Shown here: positions 7,803 through 55,490 of the stretch, one piece after another
Layout of the letters: the number at the start of each line of letters is the position of its first letter
Position numbering within the stretch: the stretch's first letter is position 1
Made by a program: the position numbers and the translations under genes
Notes under the pieces: generated by a model
Told to the model about the DNA's origin: nothing
Seen by the model: the letters and a program-made list of their open reading frames with translations, nothing else
Database searches by the model: none
Source of the DNA: Pseudovirgaria hyperparasitica
Lineage: Eukaryota
Direction: 5' to 3' (one strand)
Length of the DNA: 56,372 nt
NCBI GenBank assembly: GCA_010093815.1
Contig: ML996573.1

Positions 7803-10800
7803 TCGGGGTTCTCCCGGGGTTCTTCCGGTATATATCGGGTTACTACCGGCGTATACCGGGTCTCTTCCGGTATATATTTCCGGGTCTACTAGTACTAGAG
7901 GAGTAGTAGATATATAAGTATCTATCGGGAGACGTCCTTAGGGTACTTATTAAGCTATTATATAATATCTAAAGTCTTTATAATATAGATAAGCTATTAC
8001 TATTATATATGGAGGTTAGGGTATATAGCTAGATAGTAGCGTATTATACCTCTCCGGCCGTACGCCTTATACTATAGGGAGGTATTAGAAACGCCTCTCT
8101 TATAGATATAGTATAGAAGTCCTATAGCGCCCGTTCGGGCTTAGATAAGTATAGATACTTAGGCTTTCGTTAGCCCTTTATACATCTATTTACTTAGTTT
8201 CTTCTATAGCCCTCGAATCTACTCTAGATATCTATTCTACTAGGAGATCTAGTAGGTATAGAGTGCCTCTTTCTACTTATCTTAAGTCCACGACCGCATG
8301 TTTTTTATAAGTTCTTAAAGGCTCTACTAGTCTAGAAGAGCGTCCGGGTTATCTCGGACTTCTTATACTACTTAGCTAGAGTCGGCTTCTATTAAGTACC
8401 TATACCGTATTCGATTCCGGCCTATATATAGAAGTACGCGGTAATATATACTAATTTATACACATAGCGCGGCGAAAGTATATTCTACGTTTTCTATACG
8501 TTCCTATACTTATTATTTAGTAAAGTATACTACTCTCTATATCTAGTAGAAGTTATATATACTTATAACGTCTATCTTACGTCGTAGTAGCACCGTATTA
8601 GTAGCTTTATATACGCCTAATATAAGACGGAGTATACGGTTCTATATAGATTCGAGCTTTATTCGCCTAGTCTATATAAGGGCCGTATACTAGTACTTAT
8701 GTCCGTACGTGAAGGCGGGTCGTACTATAGATATATATAGCTGGCGTGCCTTATCCCGGGCGGTTCCCTACGTGGAGACTATAATCTATTATATAGCGGC
8801 TTCTGCCTAGAGGGCCCTAGAGACGGTATATACCACTTATGGTCCCTATTTAAGCTTACTATCTAGTATAACTCCGAGCGCGTGTATACTTTATACTAGT
8901 AGTTCGTTAAATACGTCGATTCGGGGGCGTTATTTGTCTTCCCTAGTTACCTATTTCCCTTAACGGTTAATAAAGTATATAAGCTAGTATTTCTCTAGGG
9001 CGAACTTTACTCCGTGGCGTTTTACCTACTAGAGGCACCTCTTATAGTCCTATTCTAGTCGTCTATACGTTCGGTTAGTATTATTATTAATAGCTAGGAG
9101 GTATATGTTATCGGCGTATCCGACTACCTCTATATACTTTATTTCTTAAAGAAGGTCTACCGTAAAGAAGAGGAATAGAATCGGAGAGATAGTGCTCCCT
9201 TATGGGATACTATATACTATCTCTTTATATTCGCTCTAGTACCTAGGGATATATATCTAAGTTATTCTTCCTATAAGGAATAACTATATAAAGCGTGTAA
9301 TCTATTCTAGTATTCGTCTTATCCGGAGGTTATAAATAAGTCTTATATGGTTTATCTTATTAAACGCTCCGGCCATATCGAGGGAGAGAAGCAATACTAC
9401 CCATCCCTACTTCTATACAGCCTAGACGACTTCAATAATATATTAGATAGCTATTATTAGGGAGCTATCTATCTTTACCTTCTAGTTCGGAGGGAGGAGA
9501 TTATATTCCTATACCGTGGTGCTTATCTTCTTCGCTACCGTAGCCTCTAGTATCTTATCTAGGTAGAAGAGAAGGGCGATTAGTCTCTATCCCTTTAGGG
9601 AGTTAGGGCTCTTTCCTAGTTTCGGGAGTATAATAGTATAGGCGACTTAGAAGCTCTAGGGGTGGTACCCCTACGTGACGCATGCTTAGAATATACGAGT
9701 AATAAGTAGTAGGGTCGCTTTTATAGTACTTTTTAGGCATTAATTTAGAATTCTATCTAGTCTAGGTACTTTATCATTTAGGAGTATCTTAATAATATTA
9801 AGTATATCCTCCTCCGTAACTTCTTCGGGGATGTCTACTACGTATAGATATTCGGCGCCGTGAACGTCTAATAGGTCTACTAGTTCCGGGAGAGGGAACA
9901 TAGCCTCCTATAGGGCCTTAGTTTTCTTAAGGCTTATAGAGTATATTCTCCCCTAATGTATTAGGGGAGGCATGAGTAGCGGGGGTATCGGAGTATCTAC
10001 ACCCTTAGCCTATTTCGCTATACGCTATAGCCCTATTACGTATCGTGTCTATTAACTAGTAATTATATACTACTATTTACGCCTTTCGTTATGGAGGACT
10101 TTGTCGCGTTATTATATTACTTCCTTCTATTCTTTCTATAACTCGGGTATTCTCATACGGTATACGCGTGTGTATAGCCTTCGGGCGTCTTATATACTTT
10201 CCTATACTCGAGGAATCCCCTTTGCTTCCAGGGGCCGGTATATTCGGTATAGTACATGTTTATTTCTCGTATTCTAGTATATTTATAGGAGTATCTATAC
10301 GGCCTAGTCTATGGCTAGATTATTAGATATATTAACTATAGAGGGATCTAGAATCGCCGATTCCAGGTCCTTTAGGTACTTTTCCTAGTTAGTATTCTTC
10401 TATATCTATCGTCCCCGTTATTTATTCGGGGTATATATATTTATTACGGTTTCTATACATTTATAGTCGGAATCCGTCTATACCTAGCTTAGGCGGTAGT
10501 ATTAGATCTAGTAACTAATATACTCTATGGCGAAGGTAAGGTTAAGCGTGGACCCGTCTTCGTCCTATTTATGTTTTTTCTATATAACTTATTCTATAGA
10601 TATAAGTAGGTATAGGAAGTCGTGGTAGCGGGTACGTAGTTCCCTTACTCTAAGTTCTTCCCTTACTACGGCTAGGCCTCCCTACTATTAGTAGTAGAGG
10701 TTAAAGTCTCCTAGGAGGATGTGTTACCCTAGTTCCGTAGTACCCTTAAGCATCTCGTCTAGTATAAGTACACGTTATTAGTTATATATATTATATATAT

Positions 10801-34370: not shown

Positions 34371-34644
34371 TTAAGTCTATCTCTAGATATATATCTATAG
34401 AGTATTACTCTATCTAGTTATATAATAATAATATTATTATTATTATTATAGATATTCTATTATTATAGAAGATATCTAAAAAATATTATATTTAAAAAAT
34501 ATAGAGAAAGAAATAGTATAACTATAGAGCTACAAAAGTTTTTTTAATATAGATTTCTCTATATATAATAGCTTAGACTAGAGTAGATTTAGATCTATAG
34601 AGTAGTAATCTATCTAGTTAAATAATAATAATATTATTATTATT
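34370..34644 (+). mobile_element. Two short LINE 3'-end fragments with (TTA)n tails
   Basis: tagagta...ctatctagtta(t/a)ataataataatattattatta at ~34397-34447 and ~34596-34644, similar to the reverse complement of 7530-7580. Confidence 0.7.
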
Positions 34645-34822
34645 CTAGATAGATAAAGAAAGAGAGAACTAGAGAGTCTTAGGCTCTTATAAGAATAACT
34701 AGTACTTTAGCGCCTTGGCATTCTATATATAGGGACCTAAGTTTACTATGTAACGTATACCTTACCTACTGTGAATGGGACACGATATCACATCCGACCT
34801 TTTGTACTGTTATGTAGCAGCC

Positions 34823-35950
34823 ATGATTACGTCGAAGCGGGTTGCTCTTGTTGTAGTTGCCATTCTTACGATACTTTTCTTCCTCCATAGCTTACGATCC
34901 TCCTCACCTCAGCATTCACCCTCCGATCAATTGCCTAAGTTTGTAACATCAACCCGGAGCTCAGCTTCACAACTCAAGGAAGACTTACGTGCCTCCATGG
35001 TAGAAGCGTCTCGATTTGCAACAGGGAAGGGTAGTGCGGCAGAGTCGCTCAAGTTATCTTCTCTTCAGAATCCTTTGAAGGGGCTTGGCACGAGGTCGCT
35101 CCGTGAACAGCTTGAATATCAATTTCCATACGATCCGCAATCTAACTTCCCGGCATACATTTGGCAGACATGGAAGCACGACCCGTCGGAGGTGTCCTTC
35201 GAGGAAGAATTCAGAGAGAACGAAATTAGCTGGACCCAATTGCACCCAGGCTTCGTACACGAGGTCATAACGGATGATATCGCGGTGCACTTGTTGCGCC
35301 ATCTGTATGCATCCTTGCCAGATGTATTGGCTGCCTATCATGCCCTGCCACTCCCAATACTCAAGGCTGACTTCTTCCGGTACCTAATTCTACTTGCACG
35401 CGGCGGTATCTACTCTGACATTGATACTGCTGCGCTCAAGCCTGCGACGGACTGGGTTCCTGCTAAGATTCCAAGAGATTCCTTCGGTATGATCATAGGT
35501 ATCGAGGCCGACCCGGATCGAGACGATTGGGCGGATTGGTACTCCCGGAGAATACAATTTTGTCAATGGACGATACAATCAAAGCCTGGTCATCCTATAC
35601 TTCGTGATGTCGTAGCCAACATTACGGAAGAGACTCTTCTTCGCAGAGATCGAGGCCGGCTCTCCAGAGACCACAGAGGCATAGTCGACTTCACTGGCCC
35701 TGCGCTATGGACTGATATCATCTTCAAGTACTTCAACAATCCGAGCGTTTTCGATATGAGCACGAGCCAGGGCAGCGTAACGTGGCAACATTTCACGAGG
35801 ATTACGAGCGCAAAGAAAGTTGGCGACGTAATCGTGCTACCCATTACGAGCTTCTCGCCTGGTGTAAAACAAATGGGTGCCGGAGAAGATGACGATGATA
35901 TGGCATTCGTTAAGCATCACTTCGAAGGCACTGTTACCCTAAGGGATTAG
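34823..35950 (+). CDS. OCH1: Initiation-specific alpha-1,6-mannosyltransferase (GT32); native C-terminus replaced by LTR-encoded VTLRD*
   Basis: N-terminal signal anchor, then FPYDPQSNFPAYIWQTWK, ADFFRYLILLARGGIYSDIDT (DxD), IGIEADPDRDDWADWYSRRIQFCQWTIQSKPGHP and VLPITSFSPGV...FVKHHFEG. No RIP signature. An upstream in-frame ATG at 34775 is possible. Confidence 0.92.
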   Translation: MITSKRVALVVVAILTILFFLHSLRSSSPQHSPSDQLPKFVTSTRSSASQLKEDLRASMVEASRFATGKGSAAESLKLSSLQNPLKGLGTRSLREQLEYQFPYDPQSNFPAYIWQTWKHDPSEVSFEEEFRENEISWTQLHPGFVHEVITDDIAVHLLRHLYASLPDVLAAYHALPLPILKADFFRYLILLARGGIYSDIDTAALKPATDWVPAKIPRDSFGMIIGIEADPDRDDWADWYSRRIQFCQWTIQSKPGHPILRDVVANITEETLLRRDRGRLSRDHRGIVDFTGPALWTDIIFKYFNNPSVFDMSTSQGSVTWQHFTRITSAKKVGDVIVLPITSFSPGVKQMGAGEDDDDMAFVKHHFEGTVTLRD

Positions 35951-36039
35951 TGCCTTGGCACCAACTTAGTAGACACCTCATGTACTCTAGCCTCTTCCTA
36001 TAGACATCCACTAATACGATAAGAGATATGAACCCTATA
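35932..36039 (+). repeat. 5' LTR of the outer element
   Basis: tgttaccct...aaccctata; differs from the 3' LTR by 13 transitions. Confidence 0.95.
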
Positions 36040-36040
36040 G

Positions 36041-36058
36041 TGGTGCATCGACTGGGAA
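36041..36058 (+). promoter_or_regulatory. Primer-binding site, probably tRNA-Gly
   Basis: tggtgcatcgactgggaa begins 1 nt after the LTR. Its complement ...TTCCCAGTCGATGCACCA resembles a tRNA-Gly(GCC) 3' end. Confidence 0.7.
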
Positions 36059-39000
36059 ATTAAGGATTAAGTCTACTACGAGTACTTACTAACGAGTTAA
36101 AAGAGAAGAAGCCCTACGAGTCTACACGCCACACGAGTTCCGTAATATAGAAGTATTTATAAGCTAAACTAATTATACCCCTTACGGTTGGCAGCAGCTC
36201 TAAAGAGAGAGAATAGAGATAGGATATAACGAATTTTCTTTACCAGCCGTATAAGACCCCCTTAGGCACCCTAGATGCAATATCTATAGCCTAGAAGTCC
36301 TTTATAGACTAATAGATAGCACTACGTCTTCTATTAATCCTTACTATCTAACTACCTAGTTAGTTATTTACGGGCCCGGACTAGTAGAAAACTATAATTA
36401 TTATACCCGGAGCATCCGCCAACCGTTTAAGGGAAGCTATAGACATGATAGAAGGACCTAGACCGCCGTTACCCGGTCTGTCTCTACCTCTTAAACAGTC
36501 CCTACTATTTCCTTTATCTTCTTTACATGATCTTCTACCTCTACCTCTATCTCTAGCCTCTATAAGCCTTACTATACTACTACCCCCGTTACTAGACCTA
36601 ATTAGTTTTAACCCCCTATTATATAACTATATCCCTAAGTTAGACGACCCTTTTACGCCGGAATCACTCGATACTATTAATATTCTCGCTTAGTAAATTA
36701 AGCGTTTCTAAGTTGGCTCTAACGCTCCCTTAATATAAGAGTAGCGGAGTGTTCCCTAGCGGTAAGTCTATCTATCATTATATAACGAGGGTATACGTTC
36801 TATATCTAGACCTTCCTCCCGTTTATCTAACCGTTTAATTACGACTTAGACTAATTTTCATATCCTGGTGTTACTAAGCCTACCGCTAGTACTACTCCCT
36901 AATCTCGATAACCCGTTCCCCTAGCCTTCCTCTTTGGATAATTCTCTACGGGTAGTAAACGCTTACCCTAGGAAGTCTCGGTCGCAAATAGTAAAGATAG
37001 TAAACCCGATTTAAATTCCCACGTTTAGTGGCTCTAGACTTAATAATGTTAAGGTCTAGGCCAATATCGTAAAAGCGGCATTTAATTTCAACGACTATTT
37101 CTATATATCTAATTAGGAGAAGTCTTACTACCTTACTATAATAATAATATTAAACACGTTAGGGGACATAAAGTACTTTATAAACCGAATGACGCTAGCC
37201 TAATAGATAAACGCTAAGGCAATGCTACTCGCGCTTAAGTAGAGATTTCCCCCCGTTTCTAAAATAGAGCTTAGTCATTAAGCTATGATTAAGATTACTC
37301 GGCTTAAGTAGAACGCTATGAAACTCGAGGATTACGTCGATCGAGCGTGTAAGATCCGGCGCTTCCTTCCCATAGGGATGGATAGGCTATTTAACATGAA
37401 TTTTATCCATAGGCTAAAGTCCGACCAACTTAAGGGCTAGGCGATTCCAATCGCGTGCTAAGAAGACGTAACGTTCGATACGTTAGTCAACCGTCTACTC
37501 TCTATGGCTAGAATAATAGACTTAGGGGTTACCTCCTACTTCTTTAACGAGAATAGTAAGGAGCTTAAATCGGATAGAGATATTACTATATTACTTAAGT
37601 TCTAGAACTCCCTCTAAGAGAGTAATCGGAAAGCCATAGATAAAATAACGCGGACTCTTAAGAGCTTATAGTCCATCTAAGGGCCTCCGGGGAGTTATCT
37701 ATAAGGAAACCAACCGTAGGGAAACCCGCCTAGCACCCGGTCTACGTTAGCTATGGCTCCCGTGTAGATTCCGAGCATGCTAATAGTAGCGCCCTTAATA
37801 TAGGCCTCCTAGCTACCTTTATAATATCGCTAACCATTCATAGATAAAGGGAGGGGTTACGCTATAAACATCCTCGACTAGTGTTTTATATATAGTCGAT
37901 CTAGCTATTATACGAAGACATGTAACGGTACCCCTTTACTAGAAGACTAATAAGCTACTATTAAGTCCCGATACTACGCGAATAAGGAGTAATTTATTAT
38001 AAAGCGCGTATAAATAAGCCAGCCGTAGTCTATATCGGTTACGAACGTATTAATCCGCCCCTATACTACTACGGACCCCGTTAGCCCTATTACGGTTAAC
38101 GCCTAGATACCCGGTAACTACTACGTCTTAATAAGAATGCCCGAGATTAATAATATTAAGCTTAACCCATCTATAGAAGCTAACGCTCTAGGTAAGAGAA
38201 AGTAAGAATCCGGGGGTAAAGTTATCTATGGTAGCAATTCCCGCGGCGAGTCCTTTAAAGAGCCGTATAACGTACCCGCCCCTACTAGCTAGTTTACTAT
38301 AAAGGTCCCCTAAGAATAGTATATCGTTAGTATAAAAGGGCGGAAGTACCTTAACGCTACTAATATACTTGCTAATTATAACGTTACGCTCTCCCTACTT
38401 AACCTTATTAATATATTAGAGTTATTCCGCCGCGAAGTAGCCCGTAACCTAGTCCTAGAACTAAACCCGCACGCCAATAGCTCGACTACCACTAACGCCT
38501 CTACTTAGGTTAGCTCCGTTAAGTTTCGTGTAAAGGAGGACTCTATATTAGTAGTTCCCGCGCTAATAATTAATATAACTAAGCCCCTTATTACTTTTAA
38601 TAACGAAGCCCCTCTAGCGGTAGTAGATATATTCTACGTCCATAGGGTACTTAGTAACCCTAATAGAAGTAAGCCTCGATTTAAGATAAATAAGATCCTC
38701 TTTAATGGAGGGGCTAGAACGAATTGTATTACGAAGCGCGCCGTTAACGCGGTCGGATTACCTATCCGGAAGTTCCGTACGATTATAATAGCCGTTACGG
38801 ACGGTCGGGAGACCCTGGTTACCGGCTAGACTAAGTTTAGCCTTACTATTACGGGCGTTTCCCGTTTAGTTAAGGCCTAGGTATTAGATTACTCGCCGAC
38901 CTAGATAGTTCTCGTCTACTACTACTATATGGCCTAAGTCTATTATAAAGGCGACTATACTATAAATTTATATACGATTAGCGAAAGCCCGTAATCTACC

Positions 39001-40717
39001 GTTATCGCCCTCTAAGCTCGTGTACCTTATAAAGTCTCTAAGATACTAAGAATGTTTTACTAGACATACACGAATAACTTAGATAGGTTATAGGCTACCT
39101 AGCGCTTCGAAGTACGGCTTCTAGACGACGCTAGCACGGATTAGGTCCTCTGATAGTTAGCCGACGGTAATAATATCTTTAGGCTCCCGGTAGAAATCCT
39201 AAAAAAAGGATGTTACTAGTAGATAGCCCTAAATCTACTAGTGTAAACGTATTAGGGAGAGATAGCTCCGGCGCTTTAAGTACGGTTGGTATTAGAGCGC
39301 TAGAAGTAATATAGCCATGCTTATCTAAGAACCGTTACGCTCGGAAGGAGCGAATGAAACACGCCCTCCGTATAGGTATTAATAGCGCTATAATTCCGTT
39401 AGTGCCCCCCCCCGTCTAAGAGCTATAATAATAGTTTAGATCGAGTAAAAGAAACATAGAAGAATAACGAGTTCCATGGTAACTAAGATACTCGGTGTCT
39501 AGCTACGAAGCTAACAAATCGGAAAGAGATTTAGCGCCGAATATTTAGGGACAACTACTAGATGGTTAGTATCTCGTAGGTAACGTACGGGATCGGCGCC
39601 TATATAGGGTCGTTAAAGGGTTCTACTATAGAGATTACTAACCATAGGGATTCTACTATTATGGTATGTTCTACTATAGCTTAGGGGTTCCCTACTACGG
39701 GCGGCTCTATGTATAGCGCGAATGTTTATAAGCTTCGTATATTCATTCCTAGGAATACGGCGTAGATATAGGAAGATACATTCGGATTACCAATGCTAGG
39801 GTTTCCTATAGACCGTCGTCTAATTAGTTATAGACGACCTCTACTAACGGCTAGTACATCGAGCATGTAGCTACTAAGCCGATTCCTAAACCTTAAAGGT
39901 AACTAGGTAAAGATAGAGCGTGAAACATCGTAGTTCCGAGACCTTATCGAAACATAGAGTAACTTATTTATTACTAATGTTCGGGTAATGCCGATAATGG
40001 ACTTAATTATATATTATATCCCTACGTATAGTAACATCCCTAAGGCCGCTAAGTAGGGGTTATTTATACCAAAGGAACTCGACCATCTTAAGAAGGTCCT
40101 CCCGGCATTGGACGAGACGAAAATTATCGCGCCTTACGTCTCCCTATACTCTACTTAGACTCGTCTTCCTCTAAAAGTAAGCGGAGTATTACGGATAGTT
40201 CACGCGTAGATTTAGTTAAACATAGATACGATTAAATCCAACTACCCGATTCTAAGGATAGAGCCTATCCTAGAAGGGGTTAGTAGATCTATATTAAAAT
40301 GTATGTTTTAGGCGGACGTATTAAACGGGTTTTAGGCGGTTAGGCTAAACCTAAAGTACGTCTATAAGATAGTGTTCACGATACCCTTCGGGTAATTCTA
40401 CTATTTACGGATAGAATAGGGGTTAACTAGAGGACCTAGGACGTATGCCAGGCTAAAGGACATTACTAATGGTATTATACCAAGCCCTAATCTAGAGCCT
40501 AGCTTAGGCGACGCGGTAAAGAATGTTTTCTTCGCCTCTTTTTTCAATGATAACGATGGCGGAGCCCCTAACTTTAAGGACCTGTTTCTCTTTCTCTATG
40601 AATATTACTTCCCCCGGCTTACCTAGGCGAAGCTTACTTTAAATCTAGAGAAATTACGCTTCTTCACAAGCGAGATTAAAGTCCTTAGTTATAGTAAAAG
40701 CTCTCTTGGCATTAGAC

Positions 40718-43700
40718 TATAAGAATAGGGTAGTTGGATAGTAGTGTAGCTAGATGGAACAATAGGGTGTATTCTGTCATAGAACGAATTACTACCGAAC
40801 CCTTTCGGTAGGAATCCGAGAGTATATATATAAAGGAACGCCGATCTATCTAGCACGTGACTGTTTACCGCCCTTCACGTCACCTCCTAACTCTATTAGC
40901 TAAGGTACGTGTAGGTCGGGTCCTACCTAAGGCTAAGTCCTAATAATTATCCCTTCCCTCTAGGAAGCTGCCCTTAGCGACCTAGATTATTATCTATCTC
41001 TATATCCCCATCCTAAGTCTCGCAAGACCTTAGTCGTTCTCTACGCTTCGTCTTAGATACTTACCGATATTCGCCGATCTAAGATTTATATAAGCGTTTT
41101 CCTAATAAACTAGATTTTATCTATCTTAACTTCTTATATAGGTAAGATTACCTAATTAGGCCTAGCGTATCACGTGATGTAATTAGGTAAGCCCGGGTGC
41201 TACCTATATTAAAATCTTTTCTTAGAAATATTCCTTTCTTTAAAAAACTTCTCAACTCTTTATAGAGTTTTTTAGATTATTAGGTATATTACCCGATCCT
41301 TATAGACATAGATTTATATAGATTTACTACTATTTAGTGCGATTTAGCGTAATTTGCTAATTTTCGTGCCGTCCTTAGCTAGCAATAATATAATTCGTAA
41401 TAATCCGCATAAATCAATAATAATTATAATATGGTTTCCCGAAATCTTAACGCTCTAAAGTAATCGGCGCGGAAATAGGCGCCTTTAAATAATCCCTGTC
41501 TCGCATGCGTCACTAACATGTTAAAAGCTATTAATCTACCCCGACCTAGGCCGGGCTCTAATAATCTAGCTATATATTATTATGGTTGTTACTTTCCGTT
41601 ATACATTACTCACGGCGGTGCCAAATCTATAATATACGGTACTTACATAACTAAGAAGCGTTATTACTTATAGGTATTTAAGTAAGTTCGAAGAACTTTA
41701 TGTAGATTTACTTATATTAGTATAGATTACTACTAGGCCTCTAGTGACCCCTACTAATAAGGAGCGTGGTACTACTAATCGTAACGCCTTAGAGAAGGCT
41801 TTCTACGAGCTATATACCTAAGGCAAGGGTTACGCCTAGGAGTATAATTCTAATAAGATCCGCAAGGGTTTATCGGAATCTACTACAGCTATTATTACCG
41901 CGATTACTAGGTAATATCGTTTTTCTTAAATCGTTATAGATTCTTACTAATATATGTTAATCTCTATAATAGTGCTAAAATCTCTACCACTTCGGACTTC
42001 TTTCTATATACCGGCGATATTAAAATTCCTAGAAAAGGTTCTAGTAAAAAGGCTAAGGTTCCTTCCTCGCGCGTGCTAAAGAGCCGTAAATTTAGGGAAG
42101 ATAGCTCTAATCTAGAAGTTTCTATACTAACGGTATGTGGTTCTATACCGATCGTTAAATCTTTTCGCTAATTTATATAATTCTTAGCGTGCCCACGCCG
42201 GTCCGTCCCTCTCTATCCCGGGTTCCGCTACTCCGTAGGTTTCTATAGAGGAGTTCATAGCTATAAGGCGCGCTATATAGAATTTATAGCGTCGGAACGA
42301 AAGGCTAGAGACTTATATTATAAAGCTCTACACTATGCTAAACAAGAACCAGCGGAAGGAATTAGATGTAACCATCGCGGTAATTAGTACTTCTACTCCT
42401 ACTCCGACTTGATCGGTTTGGATCTACACCGATCGGTGCTAATATATCTCTTTTATCTGGCGTTTTGGTTTTTTCGGTTTTAATTTTAAAGCGATCTTAC
42501 TTCTTCTAGATAGATTAGTGCGAGTTTATATAGATCTATATAGATCTTTATATTTTCTTTTAGCTTTCTTAATTTTATCTTTCTTTAATAATAACTTCTT
42601 TAATCTCTTTAGTAATCTATACCGATCTATACCGATCGGCACCGATTTTTAATGTCCATTTCTCTTAGTGAATCACTTTTCTAAGTCTCTTTTTTAGTTA
42701 ATTTTTTTTTAAAGTTCTAAGTTCGAACTTTCTAAGGAAGTTCCTTAATTCCTTAGAATGTTTTAAAGATCTATATCTCTTTTACCTTCTTCCTTTTAGG
42801 CGGCCGTCCTTAGCGCCGAACTATACTAAAAAACGTCGAATCGCCGTACTTTAGCATAATTCTCTGCGATTCCACGGCTTCCTTTACTAATTACTACTTA
42901 TACGCTAATATCGCTGCTTTGCTAATGTATATTACGGGTTCCCAAGTATCTTCGTTAGGATTATACCCTTTCCAACGAATTTTATATAGCCACGTGCCAT
43001 CTTCGGCACGTTATTAGCCTAGTATCTACTTAACTTCGTAGATATCCGTACCTCCTTACGTAACTACTTCATGTAACGTCTATTCGGAACGATCCGACAA
43101 CGATAAGGCATGGAATGGCTCGAGAAGCGTAATATGGAACACATTGTATATCTTTAACGTGGGAGGGAGTTTCAACTCATACGCCTGGTTATTGATTACA
43201 CGAGTAACCTTAAATAGACCTATTATCGTGTAGTTAAGCTTCTTCTTCGGCCTGATACTACGAATATTCTTGCTATTTAGTAAAACTTTGTCTCTAATAT
43301 TAAAGATTATAGGCTTTCTACCCTTATTATAGTGCGATTTACTATAATCTATAGCATCTTATAATAACTTTATAACGCTTCTTTACGTTTGGAATAGTTC
43401 TATTATAATCTCCGTCGCCTTAACGTTAGGCTACTCTGATTTACACTAAGTTCCCATGAACTGCGCTTTATAATTTCGACCGAAGTTTACTTCGAACGGA
43501 CTTACGTAGGTTGACGCATGTCGGCTGTTATTATACGCGAATTCCGCGACATAGACTAACCTTGCCTAGTTATCTTACTTATAGTTGTAATATGCGCGTA
43601 AATACGCCTTAACTATCTGATTCTACCACTCTATCTACCTATCTATTTATGGGTGGAACGCGGTGCTAAGTTTCCGCTTGATTCCTAGCGTATAGTAGAA

Positions 43701-46700
43701 ATCCTTCTAAAACTTAGACGTTATCTACGGACCTCTATCCGAAACTATACCGTTTAGTATACCGTGGAGCCGAACTACGTCACGAAGTAGTATATCTATA
43801 AGATCCGGTACTTGGATCGTCTTCCTTATAGGGATGTAGTGTAACATCTTTATAAATCTATCTAAAACTATGAGTAAACTATTATAAACATGCCTAAGAC
43901 ACTTACTTAGGGGCAGATCTATGATAAAATCCATCGACAATTCTTTCCATGCCTTATTTAGTATAGGCAATGGCCTCAATTCGCTATATAGTAAGTGTCT
44001 ATATACTTTCGTATGCTGGTAAACGTTACACGTTTTTACGTAGTCCTTTATATACTTATAAAGACCTAGCTAGTCGTACGTCCTTCGGATTAAATCGACC
44101 GTCCTTATAATACTAAAGTATCCTACTAATGCATAATCGTGCTGTTCCCTTAAAACATTGATTTGTAAGCCGCCCTCCGGCACGTAGAGTCGGCCTTAGA
44201 AGTAGATCGCGTCCGATTATCGTTCCTACCTTAATAACTACGGCGGTTCTATAGCCATTCCCTTCATGCTTATAACTTTCTTTACTAATATATCGGAATT
44301 CTAGGTAGATTTAATTAAGTCTTTGAGGATTTGCTCTGTTTCTTAGACGTTAGTTTAGATTACTTAATGCCCGCTCTAATTCCCGCGGAGAGTCGCTGAA
44401 AGTGTCCTGGCTTCCGGCACTCTATTAGATAACTAGTCTTTTAGTATCTATAGTATAGCATAGTCTAAATTGCACCAACTATCTACGTTATTCTACGACG
44501 ATTTCTCGTAATCTTTACGCCGTGATAGAGGATCTACTTTGTTCTCTCTTCTAGCTTTATATGAGATTTTAAAGTCAAATATTAATATCTACTTAGCCTA
44601 ACGTACTTATCGGCGATTAAGGACCTTGGTCGATATGAAGTAACGTAGATTTACGTAATCTAATAATAATTTAATCTAATGTACGGAGCCTTCTAAATAA
44701 TATTACCATTGCTTAAAACTCTCGATAATTACGAGTAGTTCCTAGTCGTGCGTGTTATAACGCGTCTCTATATCCGCTATTTTACGGGAAAAGAAGGCGA
44801 CCGGGTGCTATTGCACCTTATCTTTCGTATCTTTATACGGTTGACTAATAATTCTAGTAATTGCGAATCTAGATGCGTCTGTTTCGACCTAAATATGCTT
44901 CTTAGGATCGAAATGCCTAAGAATCGGCGTAGTTATAAAGCAATTCTTTAACGATCGGAACGTATCTCGCGCTTCCGGCGTCAACTATATCTTAACCGAC
45001 TTAGCTTTACGCTATGCTCGCCCACCTATAGGGATTTTACCGCCATTCTCTATGAGTTTATTAAGCGGCGCTATAATTCGTAAGAAACCTATAATGAATT
45101 TACGATAATAGTTTACGAAACCTATGAACGTCCTGATTTAACGTATAGTAGTAGGTTCTAGCCATTCTATAATGGTCTTGACACGCTCTAGCTCCATTTT
45201 AAGGCCGCCGTGTGTCATAATAAAGCCGAGAAACCCAACTTCTTGTTAGTGAAACTTATATTTAGATAACTTTACGTAGAGTTTATACTATCTTAAACGA
45301 TTTAGTACCGATTTCACGTGTTCTTCGTGATCCTATATGCTATCGGAGTAAATTAGTATGTTATCGAGGTAAACTACATAGATCATATTAAGTAATCCTA
45401 TAAGTGTAGTATTAATGTATCCTTAGAACGCTCCTAGCGCATTTATTAGCCTAAACGGCATAATAGTATACTTAAAATGACCATATCTGGTCCGAAATGC
45501 GGTTTTCCACTCATCTCCGCGACGGATTCGAAGCCGGTAATATATATCTCGCAAATCTAGCTTCGTAAAGTACTTTGCCTTGGTTAATTAGTCTAAAGAT
45601 TTACTAACCAACGGTAATGGGTGACGATTCTTCTTAGTCACCGCATTTAGTACTCGATAGTTAACGTATAGACGTAAACTTCCGTCTTTCTTCTTCACGA
45701 AGAGAATAGGTACGCTAGCTAATAACATACTATGATATATCTAGCCTCTTCCGAGATATTCTTTAATATATTTACGAAGAACTTTAAGTTCTAGTCTTAA
45801 AAGTAGATAAAGTAGACTATAAGGGACGTCTACTCCCTCTTCGAGCTCGATCTTTAGCTTATATAGCCTATAGTTGGGGAGGAGTAACGCGTCTTCTACC
45901 GAAAACATATCCGTGTACTACGAATATACGTTAGGTAGCGTGTCTTTACCCCGATTATTACTATCCTCTTCGTCTTCGTCGACGATCGATAGAGATATAA
46001 GGTAGATTAGCGACGATCGGGTCCGCACGGTAAGGTTCTATGTCTCCTTACTAATGGTTACGACTTACTAGTATAATTTACCGCGATATTAACGGAACGT
46101 TAATGTCTCCTTCTAAAAATTAAGGATTGGGTTTAGGCGTTTAAGCTAAGGCATCCCTAGAATTATATTCCATTAGCTAATATTAGCTATAATGAATTCA
46201 TTAGACATCTACTATTTTATTATCTTTAAGTCATGAACTTCATAATTCGTTATAGTTTTACCTAAAGTTCTAACTTTATATCCATTAACTATGATGGTTC
46301 GGCCAACTTTACCGAGATCGTACGATAATCTATACTTCTTAGCGAGAATCGATAAAATATAGTTATCTTCTATACTAGTGTCTATAAGGGCCTATATAGT
46401 TTTATTACCATTTACTATAGATAACGATACTTTTAGTAATATTAGGTCTTTACTCGCCGGAAGGCGCTACGGCTCCTCCTAAGTATATATAATTTAGCTA
46501 AGAACGCGGTTAGGTCTCGCGTACTAGCCTATTCTTTTTTCGGATTCTTATAGTTAGGCGAAATATATCCCTTTTCTCTATACTTATAGTAATAAAGTAC
46601 GCTATGATCCTACTATTTTACGATAGGCGTTACATTTAAGCCTATGCCTTATCCTTTTCCGCATTAGGAACCACCGCCTCGATTATTTCAGTATCCTCTT

Positions 46701-48104
46701 AACGCGTTTCTACCCCGATTTACGCTCTTCTAGCGTTAATCGCGGTAAGGTTACTCTTAATCGAACGTATTCGATCGACCTCGTTTCTAACCCGTATAGG
46801 GTTCATCGGTTTTACCTAGAGAGCCGCGTTCCTTAAGGATGCGGTAGTGTTCGTTAGCTTTCTCCTCTAATTCATGTAGATAGTTAAAACTTAATAATGC
46901 TATTCCTAATCTTTCGCGGATTAACGGGAGTAGTACTTCACGAAACTAGAATATACGAATATTTTCCTATAGTATAGGGATATTATCCTAGAGGTTTTAT
47001 AGGTATTATAGTAGTTAAGTAGGTGTCTAGTTCGGTCGTTATACCACGCTTCTTAACTTAGATAGTGCCTTTCTTTCGCGTTCTCCGTTAGTTCCGAGGG
47101 TATTTAGTATAAATATAGCTAAATGCTCCTAGGTTATCGCCGATAGTAGCTTAACTTCCTTCTATCTATTCTATTAATCGCGGGATTATAAACCTAAGTA
47201 ACGTTCTCCGAATGAAATGCGTTATACTTCGGTAGAAAAGAGCATAGGGTTATCGAGGAAGTACTTCTCGCAGTCTCTCTTCTAATCTTTCCACTTCTTT
47301 TAGTTCTTCCCTATAAATATAGTCGGATCTTTAGGTTTCAGCACACCTAAGGAAGGAGTAGGGTAAATCGGTAACGAAGCGGCCGGGTATACGGTAGATT
47401 ATCGCAACTCTAATAGTAGGTAAACTAATTCCGCCTAAATTAGTATAGGAAGTCGTCCACCTACTATCGTTCCGCGTAGTCTTTTAAGAGACTCGTTAAG
47501 TTCTCGTCGTTTTACGAGGAGTTTCGTACGTTCGGTCTATTCTTTAAGGATCTATATCTCTCGGGCTTAATTAGCGATGTGCTCCTATAGTTCGGCGATT
47601 GATGGTTGCGATTCCTTATGTAGCTCTACCACGACTCGTTATCCAGCTTCCTATCGTGGGAAGTCGCTTAGTATATCCACCATTTCCTTATTAGAAAGTT
47701 CCGTGATTCGGTCGGACATCTCTACTTCTCTATTAAGAACGGCTAGATTTAATGCCGATTATAGAGGATCCCTATTATTTAATATAGTATTACTTATCCC
47801 TATAGTAGATCGTGTCGACCTTCTTAGTTCTAGTTAGACTATCTTAACTATAGTACTATATAGGGAGTAATTCGAATATAAGAATAGGGTAGTTAGATAG
47901 TAGTATAGCTAGATAGAATAATAGGGTATATTCTATTATAGAACGAATTACTACCGAACCCTTTCGGTAGGAATCCGAGAGTATATATATAAAGGGACGC
48001 CGATCTATCTAGCACGTGACTGTTTACCGCCCTTCACGTCACCTCCTAACCCTATTAGCTAAGGTACATGTAGGTCGGGTCCTACCTAAGGCTAAGTCCT
48101 AACA
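40718..48104 (-). mobile_element. Chromovirus-type Ty3/Gypsy element (7387 bp) nested in the RT of the outer element
   Basis: 228-bp LTRs at 40718-40945 and 47877-48104; TSD tagac at 40713-40717 and 48105-48109; PPT at ~40946-40961. Motifs: protease ALIDTG (~46375-46392), RT VVYLDDIL (~45353-45377), integrase SMDFI/SDRGP/STAFHP and chromodomain YKIRWKGY.P.EDTWEP (~42936-42990). Confidence 0.95.
41431..42412 (+). pseudogene. Antisense accessory ORF of the inner element (Cys-rich N-terminus, probable intron, coiled-coil-like C-terminus)
   Basis: ATG at 41431 then PCLAC...GCYF; reverted C-G-x-C-x-TKKR-x-C. Protein-like frame ends ...ELD.TI..I.TSTPTPT* (TGA 42410-42412). Confidence 0.5.
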
Positions 48105-51070
48105 TAGACTATCCTTAGTTAAGGTCGTAGCCTTTCGGGAATAGCTAACGCTAACTTATAAGGCTGAATTAGAATGATTTATTAATAGCCTAGGATTTCT
48201 TAAGGCATTTATCCTAGGACGGTCTAACCTCTATAATTTACTTAAGACCGCTATTTAACGGACCGCGACCGCTAACGCTAGCGGTAGCCATGTTTAGAAA
48301 ACTTACTATACAACGACATTTACATGGTCCCCTAAACATTAGAAAGCGTTCGAGTTTATAAAGTCCTAAGTAGCTAATAACATTACGTCGTCTAGTGACC
48401 CCGAGAGATAGTACTACTTAGCTACTAATGCTTCTCTTACTAGTGCTAGGGGTGTCCTATTCTAACTCTATGGCGTCCCTAATAGTAAGTTAGCGAAAAT
48501 AGATAGTAGCGATAACTTAGAGATTATTATATTCCTTTTATATAAATTTAAACCTTAGGAGACTTAATACTATACCACGGAGCGCGAAGCGCTAGCCCTT
48601 CTTAAGTCTCTTAATAAGACGTACTAGCTTATCTAGGGAAGCCCTTATAAGGTTAAAGTTTATACCGACCATGTTACCCTAGTTATGATTATAACTAATG
48701 ATAACGCTTACGGCCGTCTATTACGTTAGTAACTACGGTTTATAGAATACAACCTTAACGTAAAACACGTCCCTAGTAAGAATTTAGTAATAGCGGACGG
48801 TCTTTCCCGGTTATTATAATCTCGTATATATGTAATTAGAAATAGTCTAGAAGTTAAGGACCTTATCGCGTTTAATGTCTATGCATGCCCTACCTCTAGC
48901 TATACGGTTAGCGACGTAGACCCCGATTCTAAGACTTATATCTCTATTAAGGACGAAGACCGATAGGGGAAATAGTTATACTCCGATTAGTATCGAGACG
49001 CGTTACTACTTAAACTTACAGGCATTATTTCTAACGAGAAATTATAGTCACGACCGCGACTCCGGATAATACGATAGTAGGTAAAGTCTCTTCTAATAGT
49101 TGGTACCTTACCGCTAGTACTCGCTATACTAACCTATAAGGATAAACGAGTTAAATATATAGTCGAGCACGAAGTCCGTTAGGCGATTAGGGCATGTTAT
49201 AATATTAGCGGGTACTTCGCCTCTAAGATTACTAAGGCGAAGGTCCGTCGGCGTTTCTATTGGTCTACTATTATACGAGATATTATTATCTTCTATTAAG
49301 AGTACCTATACTACTAATTCCTTAGGCCTCTCTGGCCGAGTAGAAGTATCTTACTAATTCTCTAGATATAGCCCCTCGACTTAATTAGCATGGACTATAT
49401 TAGGCCTATTACTCTAGCTAGTCCGGCTAGCGAAAAATATATCTAGATTAGTATCGACTACATAACGAGGTTTCTATTTACCTAGGCTAGGGTAATAGCC
49501 ACCTTATAAGACACCGTCGAATGCATAGTAACTAGTATTATGAACATTTTCGGGTTCCCTCGCGTAGTATATATAGATAATAGAAGTTATTTTATAGAGG
49601 GTAGCTTTCTAAAGATACTCGCGTAGAATAATATAAAGTACTTTAACGCTCTAACTAGCCACCCCTAGTCCGTCGGGCTTTCTGAGTAGTATATCTAACT
49701 TCTTCTATAAGTACTTCGAAGTATACTTTAGATAGGGCTATAAGCGATCTAGAATTAGCCGGACTACATTCTAAGAGTAGTACTAGAAATTAATAATCGG
49801 CTAATTAAGGTCGAGGGTTTTTCCCTCTTTTAACTTTTACTTGGAGGGTATACCTATCTTAGGTAATAATTATCTATTATTAACGATATTCGCTTAGCCG
49901 CGCTATAGAAAGAGCTTAGGGCTAAGATAATAGTCCCTATACAAAGTACTATCTCTTCTAATAAGTACTCCGATTATCTCGCTAGAATTAATAAAGCCTA
50001 TACCTACGGACTCTAAAAGCGTCTAATATAGTAGAAGCGTCTTACCGAACGGAGTAGGGTATACTTCCTAGAGCCTACGGTTGGTAGCCTAGTACTCTTA
50101 TACCGCCTCCGATAAGATAAGGAGAAGAGATATAAGTTTAAGCCTCGTTAGGAGGGTCCTTATAAGGTTATAAAGATTTCCTTAAATGGGTAGAGTATAT
50201 AGCTCCGCGTAATCTACTTAGGAAAGGATGTCGGGAAGTACTCTATAAACGATGTTAAGCCGTTTATAGTTCTAGTAGACGAAGATAATAATTCCGGTTA
50301 GTAAACGATCGCGGAGACTAACGATCTTATCTAGCGCAATCTCTATAGATTTTTATCGTGACTACGCGCTATGAAGAAGATTCGGATAGAAGAGAATATC
50401 CTCTAAACTAGAGACGGCTATGAACCCCTACCGGAGAACCCTAAGAGTAAGCTCCTACGCGAACTCCGGAATAGATACCCTTATACTAAGTACGATACGT
50501 CCCGAGCTTCTATATACGGGTTCGTAGAAGAAACCGCGTATTAGGGACTTAAGGCCGTTAATCTCGCCAAGCTAATAATATCGCCCGACTTATAATAACC
50601 CCATCACCTTATGAAATACTAGAGTATGATTAAAAATAGTTATACCTTATAGATAATTATTACTACCGTGCTAAGGGTTAGCGGTTTCTCTATCGAAGCC
50701 TAAATAGAATTTTAAAACTATTACGTTTATAGAATATAATTACCGCGTTAAGATACGTCTCTACATTTAGAAGTACGGCTAGTAATAGTATATCTTTCCT
50801 AAGCGAGGCCCCTATTCTACGGTTGGTAGCATTTATCTTTAGAGTTACTAGCTTAAGATTATTACCAGCGAACGGTCACGCCGTTACGGTATATATTAAG
50901 CAAGGGATAAAGATAGTTACTACCCCTGAGTTCACGAGATAGATAAAGTACCACACGCTTACCTTTAACATCTTACCTTTACCTTCGTTTACCTATCTTT
51001 TTAGACGTTCTATTCCCTCTATACCGTTTCGTTATATCTCCTCTTTAACTAAATCATTTCTATAGCTACT

Positions 51071-52963
51071 ATGAGTTCTCTAGAGAGAGTAGATACCCTA
51101 GTCGACGCGAACGAAGATGAATTTTTAGATAGTAGACATAGTTTACTAATTATCTATAACTTCGAAGCTAAGGACGATAATAAGGAGCCCCCAATAGCTA
51201 ATCCACGTAACTACGTAGTAATTAGCTAAATCGAAATGTATAAGAACGAAGACTAGTACGTTAAAGAGAGTAAGCTTTATACTTAGCTTCTCTAAAGCTC
51301 CTTATTCCTTTAACGTAACCGATGCTAGTTGAAATACTTTACGCTTAAACTTAACGCGAACATTTATAAGCGGAAGTAGAACGAATAGTCTAATACTAGC
51401 TACGAGGAGCTTAAAGATAAAATCGTCTAAATAATTACTAGTATCGCCCTCGTACTACGCACTTATATAGGCTCCTAAGACTAGATTACTAAGTATATTT
51501 AGTGCGGTCGTGCCGCGGAGGTGCTATTAAGTAAACTTATTCTAGCTAGAGAGTAATACTAGCATCTAATACTAGAAGACCTCGCGGAGGATTCTAAGGA
51601 AATCGCCCGCGATAACTATACGCTATCACACGGTAATAGCACGAAAGAAATCGAGGAGACTTTATCTAGCCATAAGGTAATGAAAGCGCTAGGGAACCGA
51701 GAACCGAACGAGCTTAGTAAAACAAGTAGCGCGATAACGGTTGCACTAGTACCAACCGTTATAGAAAATATAAACATGGTCGATAATAGCGAAGACGAGG
51801 GTAGCGACAACGAAACTTCGGACCTTAGCATGGTTTTCGGTAGTAAGTATACCCTAGTAGACCGTATAGCTATCCTTAAGCTACTCTACGGCTCTCTAAA
51901 ACCTACGCTCTAGAAGAATAAGGAGCCTTACTTTAAGCACTAAGGGCGACTCTATACAAAGTACTACCGGGCGCTATTTACTAGAGATAAGAAGGGAAAA
52001 AACATATTTATAAAGAAGTACTAGACTAGTTACATAGGTATGGATATTAATAAGAGGGAGGTAGCCCTACGCCACGAGACTACTTTTAATATCTAAGGTA
52101 AAGTCCGTAAACGTTAATAGAAGGTATGGCGTTAAGGGCACATTCTAGACGATAAAAATAAAGGTAAGTTCGCTCTAATTTCGAGTCTTACACGCTATAA
52201 GCTCTCCTAAATAGGGGCTAAGAGGATACTTAATTAGGCGGTACGAAGCTAGGTATTTAACGCGGCTAAGGAAAAATTCCGTGCTAGAGACGAAGTAAAG
52301 TCTCTATAGAATAGCTAGATTTAGTACTTAAAGGAGAAGAATAATCTTAACGATCTTAAGCGCTAGCTACGTAAAGATTTCCTTCGATAGTAGGGGGAAG
52401 ATAAGAAACGCCTCCTTAAAAAGAAAGCGGCCCTAAATAAAGCTCGAGATAAGTTCATCTAAAGGCTTAACAAAGCTAAGGGTAAGATACTCTAATTAGA
52501 AGAAGAACGTAATAACACGCGGAGGAATGTCTAAACCCTTTAATCTATCCTTGGCACGCTCTTAACGGGAAGTTTAGACGCTATTCTTACTAAGTATAAA
52601 ACTATAAACCGTAGTAAGGGACCTAGTTATGAAATAGTAGTAGGTGGAGCTATGGTTAGTAATATGTCTACCTAGCCGTAAAAAACGATGATTGAAGAGA
52701 ACATACTCTTAGGTCTTGTAATGTAGGTAACCGAGCCATTGAGGATGGCATTTTCGAGCACCTTTACTAGCCCTTACCACGCCTTACCGCGGAATGTTTC
52801 CCCCATGATAGTTTAGAACCTAATGTTTTTTACTAAAGACAACCTATATACGGAGGTTGTAATAGTAATATAATAAGACCCGGCAAATGAGAAATATAAT
52901 ATCTCTATAGTTGGCGAAGAACGGGGGATTGAAATCGGATAAGTAGCTTAGAGAAGAAAATGA
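51071..52963 (+). pseudogene. Extra 630-codon ORF between pol and the 3' LTR of the outer element
   Basis: ATG 51071 and TGA 52961-52963 are in one frame with only TAA/TAG interruptions. It contains track ORF 51680-51913 and an E/K/R/Q-rich coiled-coil-like stretch at ~52230-52540. Confidence 0.75.
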
Positions 52964-53211
52964 TAACTATAGCGTAAGAGAGTTACAATTAAACCGACTC
53001 TAGCTTTAACCGTATCGCGGAGGATTAGGTCTATAGTTAGTACTATATATTAGAATAAATACTACTTTTAGTAGGGTAAATCTAAGGATAAAATAGAGGG
53101 GGGGGAGAAGAGAAGTTAGAAAACTCTAGGAACTTAGGACTTAGGCGTTTAACTTTTAAGGAAACATAGGGTTACATATATAAGAAGTTTAAGAGACATC
53201 TAATAACATAT

Positions 53212-53226
53212 AGAGAGAGAGAAGGA
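53212..53226 (+). promoter_or_regulatory. Polypurine tract
   Basis: agagagagagaagga abuts the 3' LTR. Confidence 0.85.
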
Positions 53227-53334
53227 TATTACTCTAAGGGATTAGTACCTTAGTACTAACTTAGTAGATACCTTATGTACTCTAGCCTCTTCCTATAGAT
53301 ATCTACTAATATAATAAGAGATATAAACCCTATA
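53227..53334 (+). repeat. 3' LTR of the outer element
   Basis: 108-bp direct repeat of 35932-36039. Confidence 0.95.
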
Positions 53335-53387
53335 GCACTTGGAAGCTAGAGGAGCTAAGGTACATTAGAGAGAATAATAAAGAATAA
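53335..53387 (+). pseudogene. OCH1: Displaced native 3' end of OCH1
   Basis: Joining at the gcac TSD gives FEG-TWK-L-EELR-Y-I-R-ENNKE*, the RIP'd form of GTWKPEELRHIGE..., matching the usual Och1 tail GTWKPE..RHIG. Confidence 0.88.
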
Positions 53388-53832
53388 ACTCTAAGAGATG
53401 TCTATCTCTTATATCGGTCTCTTCTAAGATAATATTATATTAGCATTTTAGAAGAGCTTTAGAATTGAATTATAATTTTAGTTATTATAAATTACCTAGT
53501 CTATAAGAAGGTATATAGAGCGTAGATATATAAATTTATACTTTTTTTTAAATATATAATTATTAGTATAGATAAATATCAAGAGTTATACTTAAATCAA
53601 ATGGTTTATTAGTAGGTTAGCTAATTAGTAAGTATATTAACTTATTAATAAACTAACATAGAGCCGAACCTCTTCGGTTGAAATCCCTAATCTGGTCGGC
53701 ACAGCTAGCAGCAAGGATTTAGCGTCTAAGCTTGGGTCGCGACTTACCAAAGTCGTGCAACAAATGCTTCCGAACCACATTTCTAGCTTCAGACAATCTA
53801 TCTTCGAGTCATTCAATACTTGCTCAACCTGA

Positions 53833-55247
53833 TTACAAGTTCCCTCTTATCCAAGGATGCCCAAGCAACTCCTTCGCGGTCCACCGATCCTCAGGCCTCC
53901 ACTGCAACATGCACCTCACAAACTGCAAGAATTCTTCCTTTTTTTCTCCGTCCAGATTTTCTTCCGAGCTCTCCAACGTCAAGCCTTGCGGTATACATGT
54001 ATCGGCTAACCAATTTCCTAATAGAACTTCGGTTAGCTTAAGGCGGTACGTTGGGCGTACAGTCTCACCTTCACCATCGAAAAATTCTTTACTCCGCGCT
54101 CCTCTCTCTAGCATATCCGTCGGCGGCGGACCGAGCATCGCGACTAGTTCCGCGAGATGAGCCCTGGTCATGTATCGGTTTTCAGCTGGATCGATGCCGT
54201 AGAAGAGATGTTTACTCTCGTAGAGGTCCCAAATCTGTGCACTTAGGTCAATGTCTGGTTTCGCCTCAGGCTTGAGACGGTACGCACCATCGCTCCAACG
54301 TTCCAGATATCAGCTGGATAACCCCATTCAGTCTTCAGCATGACCTCTGGGCATCGGTAGACATCTGGTTGCGCGTGATGGATCTGAGGTTTGTCGCCAC
54401 GAACTGCAGAGCCGAAGTCTCCAAGGACAACACGGCCATACTCTTTCGGCAACCCGAACTGGCGTGTCGCGTAGATTGGCTTGCCGTCCACGACTTTTCG
54501 AGGCGAGGGAGATGTCATTTCGGCGTCAACAAAGGCTTTCAAGATGCCCTGGTCCTCAATTTCTATGAGGATGTTGTCGGCTTTTATGTCTACATTTTTG
54601 TCAACAGAGTTGCGGGAAGACATGTGTTGAACCGTACCTGTATGTATGATCTTGGCTTCTGTATGAAGGTAATCGAGTGCGAGGAACACTTGCGACAAAC
54701 CAGCTTTTAGCAGCTCGTCCGTGAAGCGGTGCGCAGGGTTTCTGTTCAAGAGATCCTTGAAACTATCCCACATTGGTGTCTGGACAAGACATCGATGATC
54801 GCCACCTTGTCGGGGAATAGTAAACAAGTCAAGAGCTGTCCGGACGTGATTGTACCCTGGATGCGAAGCATTGCCTTGGCTTAAGATACTGTACATGCTG
54901 TACTCATCTTCATCCATTCCCTCTCTTATGAAAACTTTCAAGGTCGTGTAAGCATGGTGACTGGTGTACTGTTAGTATAGATAGCATAATTGCCGAATGG
55001 TAACTTGCTTCAGATCACGGGCCAGCCAAACAGTTGACGTAACACCAAAACCAAGTTTGCCTACTACTTGGTACTTCGACGCAAAGACATCTCCTATGTT
55101 GACCGGATAGTAGACACCCCTGTGGAACTCCTCAAGCTGTTCTTCTTCAAACAATACTGCGTCGCTAACGACTTCAAAACCGGATGTCGGAAAGTTGAGT
55201 TTGGGCCATGGTTGTCTTCGAAAGAGTGACTTCGCGAGTTTGAACAT
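53833..55247 (-). CDS. SRPK-like (CMGC) Ser/Thr protein kinase, 5 exons, 404 aa
   Basis: Exons 55009-55247, 54638-54960, 54288-54589, 54069-54234 and 53833-54017 total 1215 nt. Motifs KLGFGVTSTVWLARD, LKV, IIHTDIKADN, LGDFG, YRCPE, DIWNVG and MLQWRPEDR. Confidence 0.92.
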
Positions 55248-55399
55248 AGGGAAACGTGTAAAGAGCGTATCGTAATATAAAGTACTAGGGCGGAAGGCTG
55301 CAATCAGCCTTAAGTTTAAGGCTACTTTCCTAAAATTATATAGAGTAGAGTATTATAGAGTAGAGTATTATAGAGATAGAGAAAGTTATATAATATATC

Positions 55400-55400
55400 T

Positions 55401-55431
<31 letters not shown>

Positions 55432-55490
55432 ATAACTAGATAGAGTAGTTTACTCTATAGATATATACCTTCTCTAGTCTAAGCTATTAT
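55400..55490 (-). mobile_element. LINE 3'-end fragment with tail
   Basis: (taa)n...tatataactagatagagtag...ccttctctagtctaagc, matching 7530-7606. Confidence 0.8.

Follow-up and report, generated by a model that had tools for sequence, protein, structure and literature searches.

The window analysed here, a stretch of 56,372 nucleotides at the end of contig ML996573.1 in the 35.4-Mb assembly of Pseudovirgaria hyperparasitica (GCA_010093815.1), carries an OCH1 gene for a GT32 alpha-1,6-mannosyltransferase whose last 15 amino acids are severed, after the residues FEGT, by a 17,403-bp Gypsy-in-Gypsy insertion. The gene is transcribed into the long terminal repeat (LTR) of the inserted retrotransposon, which supplies a new C-terminus and stop codon, and the part cut off holds a nearly universal tryptophan. 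Our preferred reading, held tentatively and based on analogy with related glycosyltransferases, is that the locus is a maintained OCH1 allele of weak activity. P. hyperparasitica is a Dothideomycete (Acrospermales) and is described as a mycoparasite of rust sori (PMC3317363). The assembly contains gaps and the window lies at a contig end, which sets the scope of every copy search reported below.

The interrupted OCH1 gene

The OCH1 body (codons 1-370, 34823..35931, plus strand) is intronless. It contains a PF04488 domain (57.6 bits against a cut-off of 23) with a DxD motif at D199/D201 and a C-terminal H365, and it matches yeast Och1 (PDB 9N3S) with an E-value of 2e-73. The best database matches are named Och1 and share 63-66% identity with it, paralogs following at 31-34%. 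The protein matches the public P. hyperparasitica record at 100% identity over 99% of its length. Otherwise no homolog is a close relative (best 66%) and the protein forms a cluster of one member. From its family membership its putative reaction is alpha-1,6-mannose transfer to Man8GlcNAc2. The sequon N-x-T at codon 318 has been lost by an N>S change, at an asparagine that is invariant in 44/44 aligned orthologs.

The gene at 34823 is the sole OCH1 ortholog of this assembly. A search with 278 body residues returned the gene itself and next matches at 34% and 31%. The PF04488 search returned eight loci including OCH1, the seven others reaching no more than 31% over their length, and an intact ortholog compared with these loci matched the window locus at 65% and the next two at 31% and 28%. 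The first-pass annotation of this DNA had suggested looking for a second OCH1 copy; none was found in the assembly by either search.

The outer element is flanked by an exact 4-bp target-site duplication, GCAC, at 35928..35931 and 53335-53338 (plus strand). Its 5' LTR provides the third base of T370, the codons for VTLRD, a stop at 35948-35950 and a new 3' untranslated region, and the resulting open reading frame (34823-35950) encodes 375 amino acids ending in KHHFEGT-VTLRD-stop. Beyond the second GCAC the original frame resumes as T-WKLEELRYIRENNKE-stop and runs to 53387 with no base gained or missing. This orphaned tail (53335..53387, plus strand; GCAC, 15 codons and a stop) shows three changes of the repeat-induced point mutation (RIP) type at conserved residues (P>L, H>Y and G>R). 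Set against the ortholog tail WKPExxRHIG, all three are CpA>TpA or TpG>TpA changes. The first-pass annotation had described a split by a 17.4-kb nested insertion, a duplication that restores the frame, an LTR-derived VTLRD and stop, these three changes in the tail, and some 370 upstream codons that are open and free of RIP; all of these points were borne out. Contigs from DNA runs span each junction singly with 0 differences, which confirms the assembly only, as the runs may be its source; for the same reason little can be read from the joined, empty-site form not being listed in these runs.

Ortholog loci were collected from metagenome contigs (80 loci; 8 without the motif and 8 duplicates were removed, leaving 64). 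The 5' copy of GCAC starts precisely at the position of a phase-1 intron, within a glycine codon, in the orthologs. The junction 35927/35928 is the intron site in 56/64 of these loci, and the intron has been lost in this species. The coincidence is probably due to chance together with survival of near-terminal insertions only. Canonical splicing cannot remove the element at this site.

Transcription across the junction

Four sequencing runs contain the locus and none is on record as RNA. Two of them (X3 and X4, one sample) were taken as RNA on the strength of kinase-gene joints with CT..AC ends and of cover restricted to genes; the runs comprise only two samples, possibly of one strain. RNA-type contigs from both cross from OCH1 into the LTR with no gap and no difference (X3, 34822..36071; X4, 34843-35977), passing the junction by 139 and 45 bases. 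Because both runs cross it unspliced, a chimeric OCH1-LTR transcript exists. Such contigs do not give the strand, true ends or level of a transcript, and rare forms are dropped from them.

The public gene model (P0002) places a second exon at 36640..36693 (plus strand), inside the retroelement, with a donor at 35933. This exon is absent from the RNA-type contigs, which are unspliced there, and the spliced end of the model is unsupported; the public protein record thus ends in a retroelement peptide not seen in these contigs. RNA-type cover is not listed over the tail or over 36621-37287, an absence in contigs that is not used as proof. On paper one in-frame splice pair would join body and tail (donor 35933, acceptor 53318); it is not among the listed joints.

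The lost C-terminal motif

In the 64 ortholog loci the tryptophan of the tail is present 63 times: in 56 loci the phase-1 intron splits the glycine codon and G[TS]W[KR] comes after it, in seven the motif is contiguous, and one locus ends 62 bases later. Yeast Och1 carries GSWK, and a paralog family at ~31% identity has H.[FY]HAS.W in 120/120 proteins. A natural truncation at FEG, suggested by 72/118 database proteins without the tryptophan at that position, was rejected; these are unspliced gene calls, because 56/64 loci have an intron there. In an alignment of 100 rows (45 OCH1 sequences chosen for having the tail and 55 paralogs), 41 columns are invariant across the family. The window protein keeps 39 and lacks the tail W and R, leaving the motif HxFxG[TS]WK..R incomplete in the encoded protein.

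By alignment, the donor and acceptor residues of yeast Och1 have identical counterparts in the chimera except for the main-chain contact M464. The crystal structure of the apo yeast enzyme does not resolve F465-K480, and H463/M464 are the last of the modelled contacts (PMC12312940); supplementary figures of that paper, which deal with the confidence of its models, may bear on this point. The predicted structure of an intact ortholog (pLDDT, the predicted local distance difference test score, 77 overall and ~53 in the tail) aligns with 9N3S to 293/464 and with ligand-free YeGT to 299/302 (Z score 15.6, root-mean-square deviation 3.7, 203 residues aligned). A first AlphaFold model (44 rows, pLDDT 57, tail ~32) was not used. 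If the end of the alignment is ungapped, W298 of the ortholog would fall on W301 of YeGT. The YeGT mutant W301A has lower activity both as a hydrolase and as a transferase, and transfer falls strongly when the last 20 residues are removed (PMC11152714). Because the lost tryptophan maps to the C-terminal lid tryptophan that YeGT needs, the chimera has probably lost a mobile lid and the enzyme is probably impaired. The first-pass annotation had noted the loss of the conserved WK and thought that activity may be altered; the loss stands, and "altered" is probably too mild with the lid tryptophan gone.

A sequence of events follows from these data. An LTR retrotransposon inserted in the last 16 codons of a single, intronless OCH1, duplicating GCAC, and a second Gypsy is nested inside it; RIP acted after the insertion, as the LTR differences and the tail show. 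Transcription, seen in the RNA-type contigs, reads into the 5' LTR, which adds five residues and a stop and forms the new 3' untranslated region; the chimeric transcript is presumably translated. By alignment the protein keeps its membrane/signal end, the GT-A core, the DxD motif and the modelled donor and acceptor contacts other than M464. The lid with its tryptophan, which should close over the nucleotide sugar, would be gone, and activity would be reduced, as the structure and the YeGT mutants suggest. The loss could be tolerated if the fungus depends little on outer-chain initiation or if the residual activity is enough. Transcription, or selection on residual function, may protect the body and the transcribed LTR from RIP; the tail, unread and boxed in by repeats, took RIP changes.

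RIP and the question of selection

The density of CpA+TpG per 100 bases is 12.8 in the body and 12.7 in its last 300 bases, falling to 5.5 in the tail and 3.0-3.2 in the element interior. The 5' LTR has 10.2 and the 3' LTR 0.9. The drop, from 6-7 to 1-3 per 50 bases, occurs at ~36050, close to the RNA contig end at 36071. Differences within the LTR pairs are all transitions (13/108 in the outer pair and 11/228 in the inner) with 0 transversions or indels. All 13 outer differences are in the 3' copy, 10 of them at CpA/TpG, and 11 fall at sites whose counterparts in the 5' LTR belong to the 3' untranslated region. The two pol frames of the element contain 157 stops in ~2,400 codons. In the OCH1 body, 101 of 141 RIP targets would be damaging and no CpA/TpG loss is seen. 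RIP has saturated the ends of the long interspersed nuclear elements (LINEs) that face OCH1 and the neighbouring kinase gene as far as their edges (0.2 and 0.0 CpA+TpG per 100), a contrast to OCH1 that is qualified by the LINEs perhaps being older, higher-copy families.

In other fungi RIP hits single-copy linkers between repeats and fades over ~150 bases at repeat edges (10.1101/344036), and it leaks into unique genes beside repeats (PMC2973834). The body is constrained over the long run, and it may plausibly have stayed under selection once the element had inserted. Maintenance is best suggested by the transcribed 5' LTR, which has none of the 13 RIP changes. The first-pass annotation had taken the open body and the decayed tail as a suggestion that the chimeric gene stayed under selection; the data make this no more than plausible. 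Because the LTR pairs differ by transitions only, neutral change since the insertion amounts to a few percent at most. With so small a divergence a frame of 1.1 kb should stay open even in the absence of selection, the neutral chance of no nonsense change in the body being roughly estimated at 0.25-0.8 over the allowed range. The decay of the tail also has a neutral explanation, because the tail adjoins the LTR on one side and has a second RIP'd repeat close by on the other. This repeat (53449..53658, no strand assigned), a remnant of a dispersed family with 17 other matches at 73-91% identity, several on the same contigs, begins 60 bases after the tail stop. A RIP leak of 350 bases beyond the 3' LTR was considered and rejected, since 53449-53658 is itself a repeat.

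Several observations weigh against a maintained allele that lost its lid. RIP fades over ~150 bases at repeat edges (10.1101/344036), the 3' LTR has the second repeat 115 bases away, and RIP hits are clustered, so that the 13:0 asymmetry may represent as few as two events or a handful. Of 167 columns that are 95% conserved, the body departs from 14, where the maximum among 116 orthologs is 6. A paralog control departs from 4/138 (8/119 reach that), p = 0.051, and at 90%-conserved columns OCH1 has 19/189 departures against 9/171 in the control (p = 0.11); both comparisons are limited by unlike taxa in the OCH1 and paralog homolog sets and by the lack of a close relative of the species. Only one of the departures from conserved columns, V153I, is in a RIP context. 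This raised divergence is a weak hint, from sequence comparison, of an older relaxation. Apo yeast Och1 has a disordered tail, and none of the contacts modelled in it is lost here (PMC12312940), the match of W298 with W301 depends on the end points of aligned ranges in a region of pLDDT ~53, and the transcript data come from one sample that is not on record as RNA. No RIP-free pseudogene among repeats was found as a neutral control in four kinase paralog loci; one of them, L095, looks intact, its stop lying in an intron.

Alternative explanations

A real possibility, to which we give somewhat less credence than to a weak allele, is that the gene is a young transcribed pseudogene: the enzyme would be dead, OCH1 dispensable in a mycoparasite, and the body intact as unique sequence that has had little neutral time. 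The lack of transversions and indels in both LTR pairs and the open frame expected neutrally agree with this, the tail decay and the LTR asymmetry can be read neutrally, and divergence is raised at conserved columns. A quadruple och deletion in Aspergillus fumigatus is cited as without phenotype (PMC11237753), and seven other GT32 loci exist here. It is harder to reconcile with an element that has 157 stops and a saturated 3' LTR and yet a transcribed LTR without a private RIP change, or with a body that shows no CpA/TpG loss though most of its RIP targets would be damaging. In A. fumigatus, where och1 loss causes only a sporulation defect in high calcium, AfOch4 does not rescue or replace AfOch1 (PMC3012087). 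In Neurospora crassa och-1 loss is severe, giving tight colonies without conidia and blocking perithecia (PMC6796803). Either a weak or a dead OCH1 allele could be tolerated. The first-pass annotation had called a cell-wall phenotype possible; by these precedents it could range from severe, as in Neurospora, to mild or absent, as in Aspergillus. An enzyme of near-normal activity under ordinary purifying selection, with the tail dispensable or replaced by VTLRD, is the first-pass reading taken to its strongest form and is improbable. Such an enzyme would fit the yeast binding residues, identical apart from the main-chain M464, and a sole ortholog that is expressed and RIP-free. Against it stand the tryptophan in 63/64 ortholog loci and in a second subfamily at ~31% identity, the need for the equivalent lid residue in YeGT (PMC11152714), and the lack of an aromatic residue in VTLRD.

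Least probable, and very unlikely in our view, is that the native tail is spliced back over the element, or that intact alleles exist in the species and the insertion is the quirk of a single culture. One in-frame pair (35933/53318) is available, the two samples may be one strain, and contigs drop rare forms. Both RNA-type runs nevertheless cross the donor unspliced, the intron would measure 17 kb with weak sites and add six residues, and the tail no longer encodes the conserved P, H and G, which argues against its use. The maintained allele is expected to be a weak rather than an improved enzyme, because a part needed by related enzymes is lost. An extended form of this reading, in which the lid-less Och1 is the only outer-chain initiator, has a selected function, produces an altered N-glycan coat, and has adopted the LTR as a 3' end shielded from RIP, is speculative and we regard it as unlikely. 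The selected function may then be mannose transfer, at a lower rate or of a different kind, or else a Golgi role without catalysis, and the organism would be a rust hyperparasite with an altered N-glycan coat.

Relation to known systems

The chimera shares with the fungal Och1 proteins (GT32; yeast 9N3S, AfOch1, NcOCH-1) the PF04488 core, the DxD motif and the pocket residues, with 63-66% identity to its best Dothideomycete-type orthologs. It differs from them in lacking the W-K..R tail, in ending in the LTR-derived VTLRD, in the loss of the conserved intron and in forming a RIP-free island. The same fold and the same S/T-W position at the end of the core are predicted for the GT32/GT44-type lid of YeGT (Ser300-Trp301; PMC11152714), whereas the YeGT enzymes are bacterial, modify proteins and share 14-18% identity, and a role of the tryptophan in Och1 is suggested by analogy. 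In the AvrLm6 region of Leptosphaeria maculans, RIP-type changes likewise occur in unique sequence beside repeats (PMC2973834). Here the leak is confined to the orphaned tail between two repeats, and the body is free of it though it lies 110 bases from a LINE and touches an LTR.

The locus is a further case of a transposon supplying the 3' end of a gene, in which a single-copy enzyme is struck exactly at an invariant motif. Transposon exonisation and LTR-donated 3' ends, gene truncation by transposons, nested LTR elements and RIP leakage are known phenomena, and a study on coding sequence derived from transposable elements in Blumeria has reportedly appeared as a 2026 bioRxiv preprint (10.64898/2026.05.04.722472). 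As in other LTR-donated ends, the host transcript enters the LTR for codons, a stop and 3' untranslated sequence. The present case differs in that a single-copy housekeeping glycosyltransferase has had its conserved catalytic lid cut off and in that the retained and the severed part can be set side by side through their RIP marks. No publication on this OCH1 locus was found in the open-access literature. The locus amounts to a natural experiment on two questions: does Och1 need for catalysis its invariant C-terminal tryptophan, which the only crystal structure does not show, and can a filamentous ascomycete manage with little or no Och1? It also provides a comparison within one locus, in which RIP spares a transcribed LTR and strikes its twin and the orphaned tail.

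The outer and nested Gypsy elements

The outer element has a 108-bp 5' LTR (35932..36039, plus strand), spared by RIP relative to its twin, and a 108-bp 3' LTR (53227..53334, plus strand) in which each of the 13 differences is C>T or G>A. Its interior (36040..53226, plus strand) is RIP-destroyed and encodes RNase H followed by integrase; the reverse transcriptase, interrupted by the inner element, was recognised by eye. A primer-binding site (36041..36058, plus strand) is complementary at 17/18 bases to the genome's tRNA-Gly(GCC) at its 3' end, CCA included, and a polypurine tract recognised by its sequence (53208..53226, plus strand) precedes the 3' LTR. The LTR pair, the target duplication, these two sites and the order of RNase H before integrase identify a Ty3/Gypsy element. 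The LTRs end in TG..TA, presumably altered from CA. About 2.5 kb between integrase and polypurine tract (50700-53200) hold a decayed plus-strand frame rich in K, E and R, possibly an extra gene. Sister copies were not found in the assembly by DNA, pattern or protein search, each of which gives a lower bound. The element is heavily RIP-ed with no detectable sister or solo LTR; its family seems to have vanished or eroded and this copy to persist.

The nested element (40718..48104, minus strand) belongs to a multi-copy family and has 228-bp LTRs (40718-40945 and 47877-48104) flanked by the target duplication TAGAC (40713-40717 and 48105-48109). It is a chromovirus-type Gypsy with reverse transcriptase, RNase H, integrase zinc finger, SH3 and chromodomain, and ~2 kb (40950-42900) separate the chromodomain from the 3' LTR.

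Genomic surroundings

RIP-type, TpA-rich repeat DNA fills the 50 kb upstream of the window (of which ~1 kb is N) as well as the window's own first 34 kb. Two islands alone are rich in CpA/TpG, one of them OCH1 (34.7-36.05 kb), the other a kinase gene (53.7-55.27 kb). RIP'd repeats extend over more than 100 kb, and OCH1 lies at their end as an island of 1.3 kb free of RIP. These repeats reach the contig end and may lie near a centromere or telomere. That RIP acted on the inserted element implies sexual cycles, although the fungus is described as a hyphomycete.

The serine/threonine kinase gene (53790-55247, minus strand) encodes ~404-408 amino acids, has four introns and is RIP-free and expressed. 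Two of the introns are seen as joints in RNA-type contigs and the first is probably GC-AG. RIP'd DNA begins ~30-70 bases before the kinase start. The kinase has several paralogs, among which L095 is a similar island among repeats. The OCH1-kinase neighbourhood had no match in 80 ortholog loci, many of them short.

LINE-like (TAA)n ends form inverted repeats around both genes (34385-34655 and 55387-55490), one of them stopping ~110-170 bases upstream of the OCH1 start. A copy of the family at 7511-10100 encodes RVT_1 on the minus strand (7.7-10.1 kb). A composite or Pack-type DNA transposon carrying both genes was considered and rejected, the flanking inverted repeats being (TAA)n LINE ends and not terminal inverted repeats. 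Elsewhere in the assembly, an open frame of 1451 codons that bears no RIP signature includes a Gypsy-like RNase H match at locus L116 (G000:C36:52798-53433); it is apparently an unmutated element or a domesticated gene.

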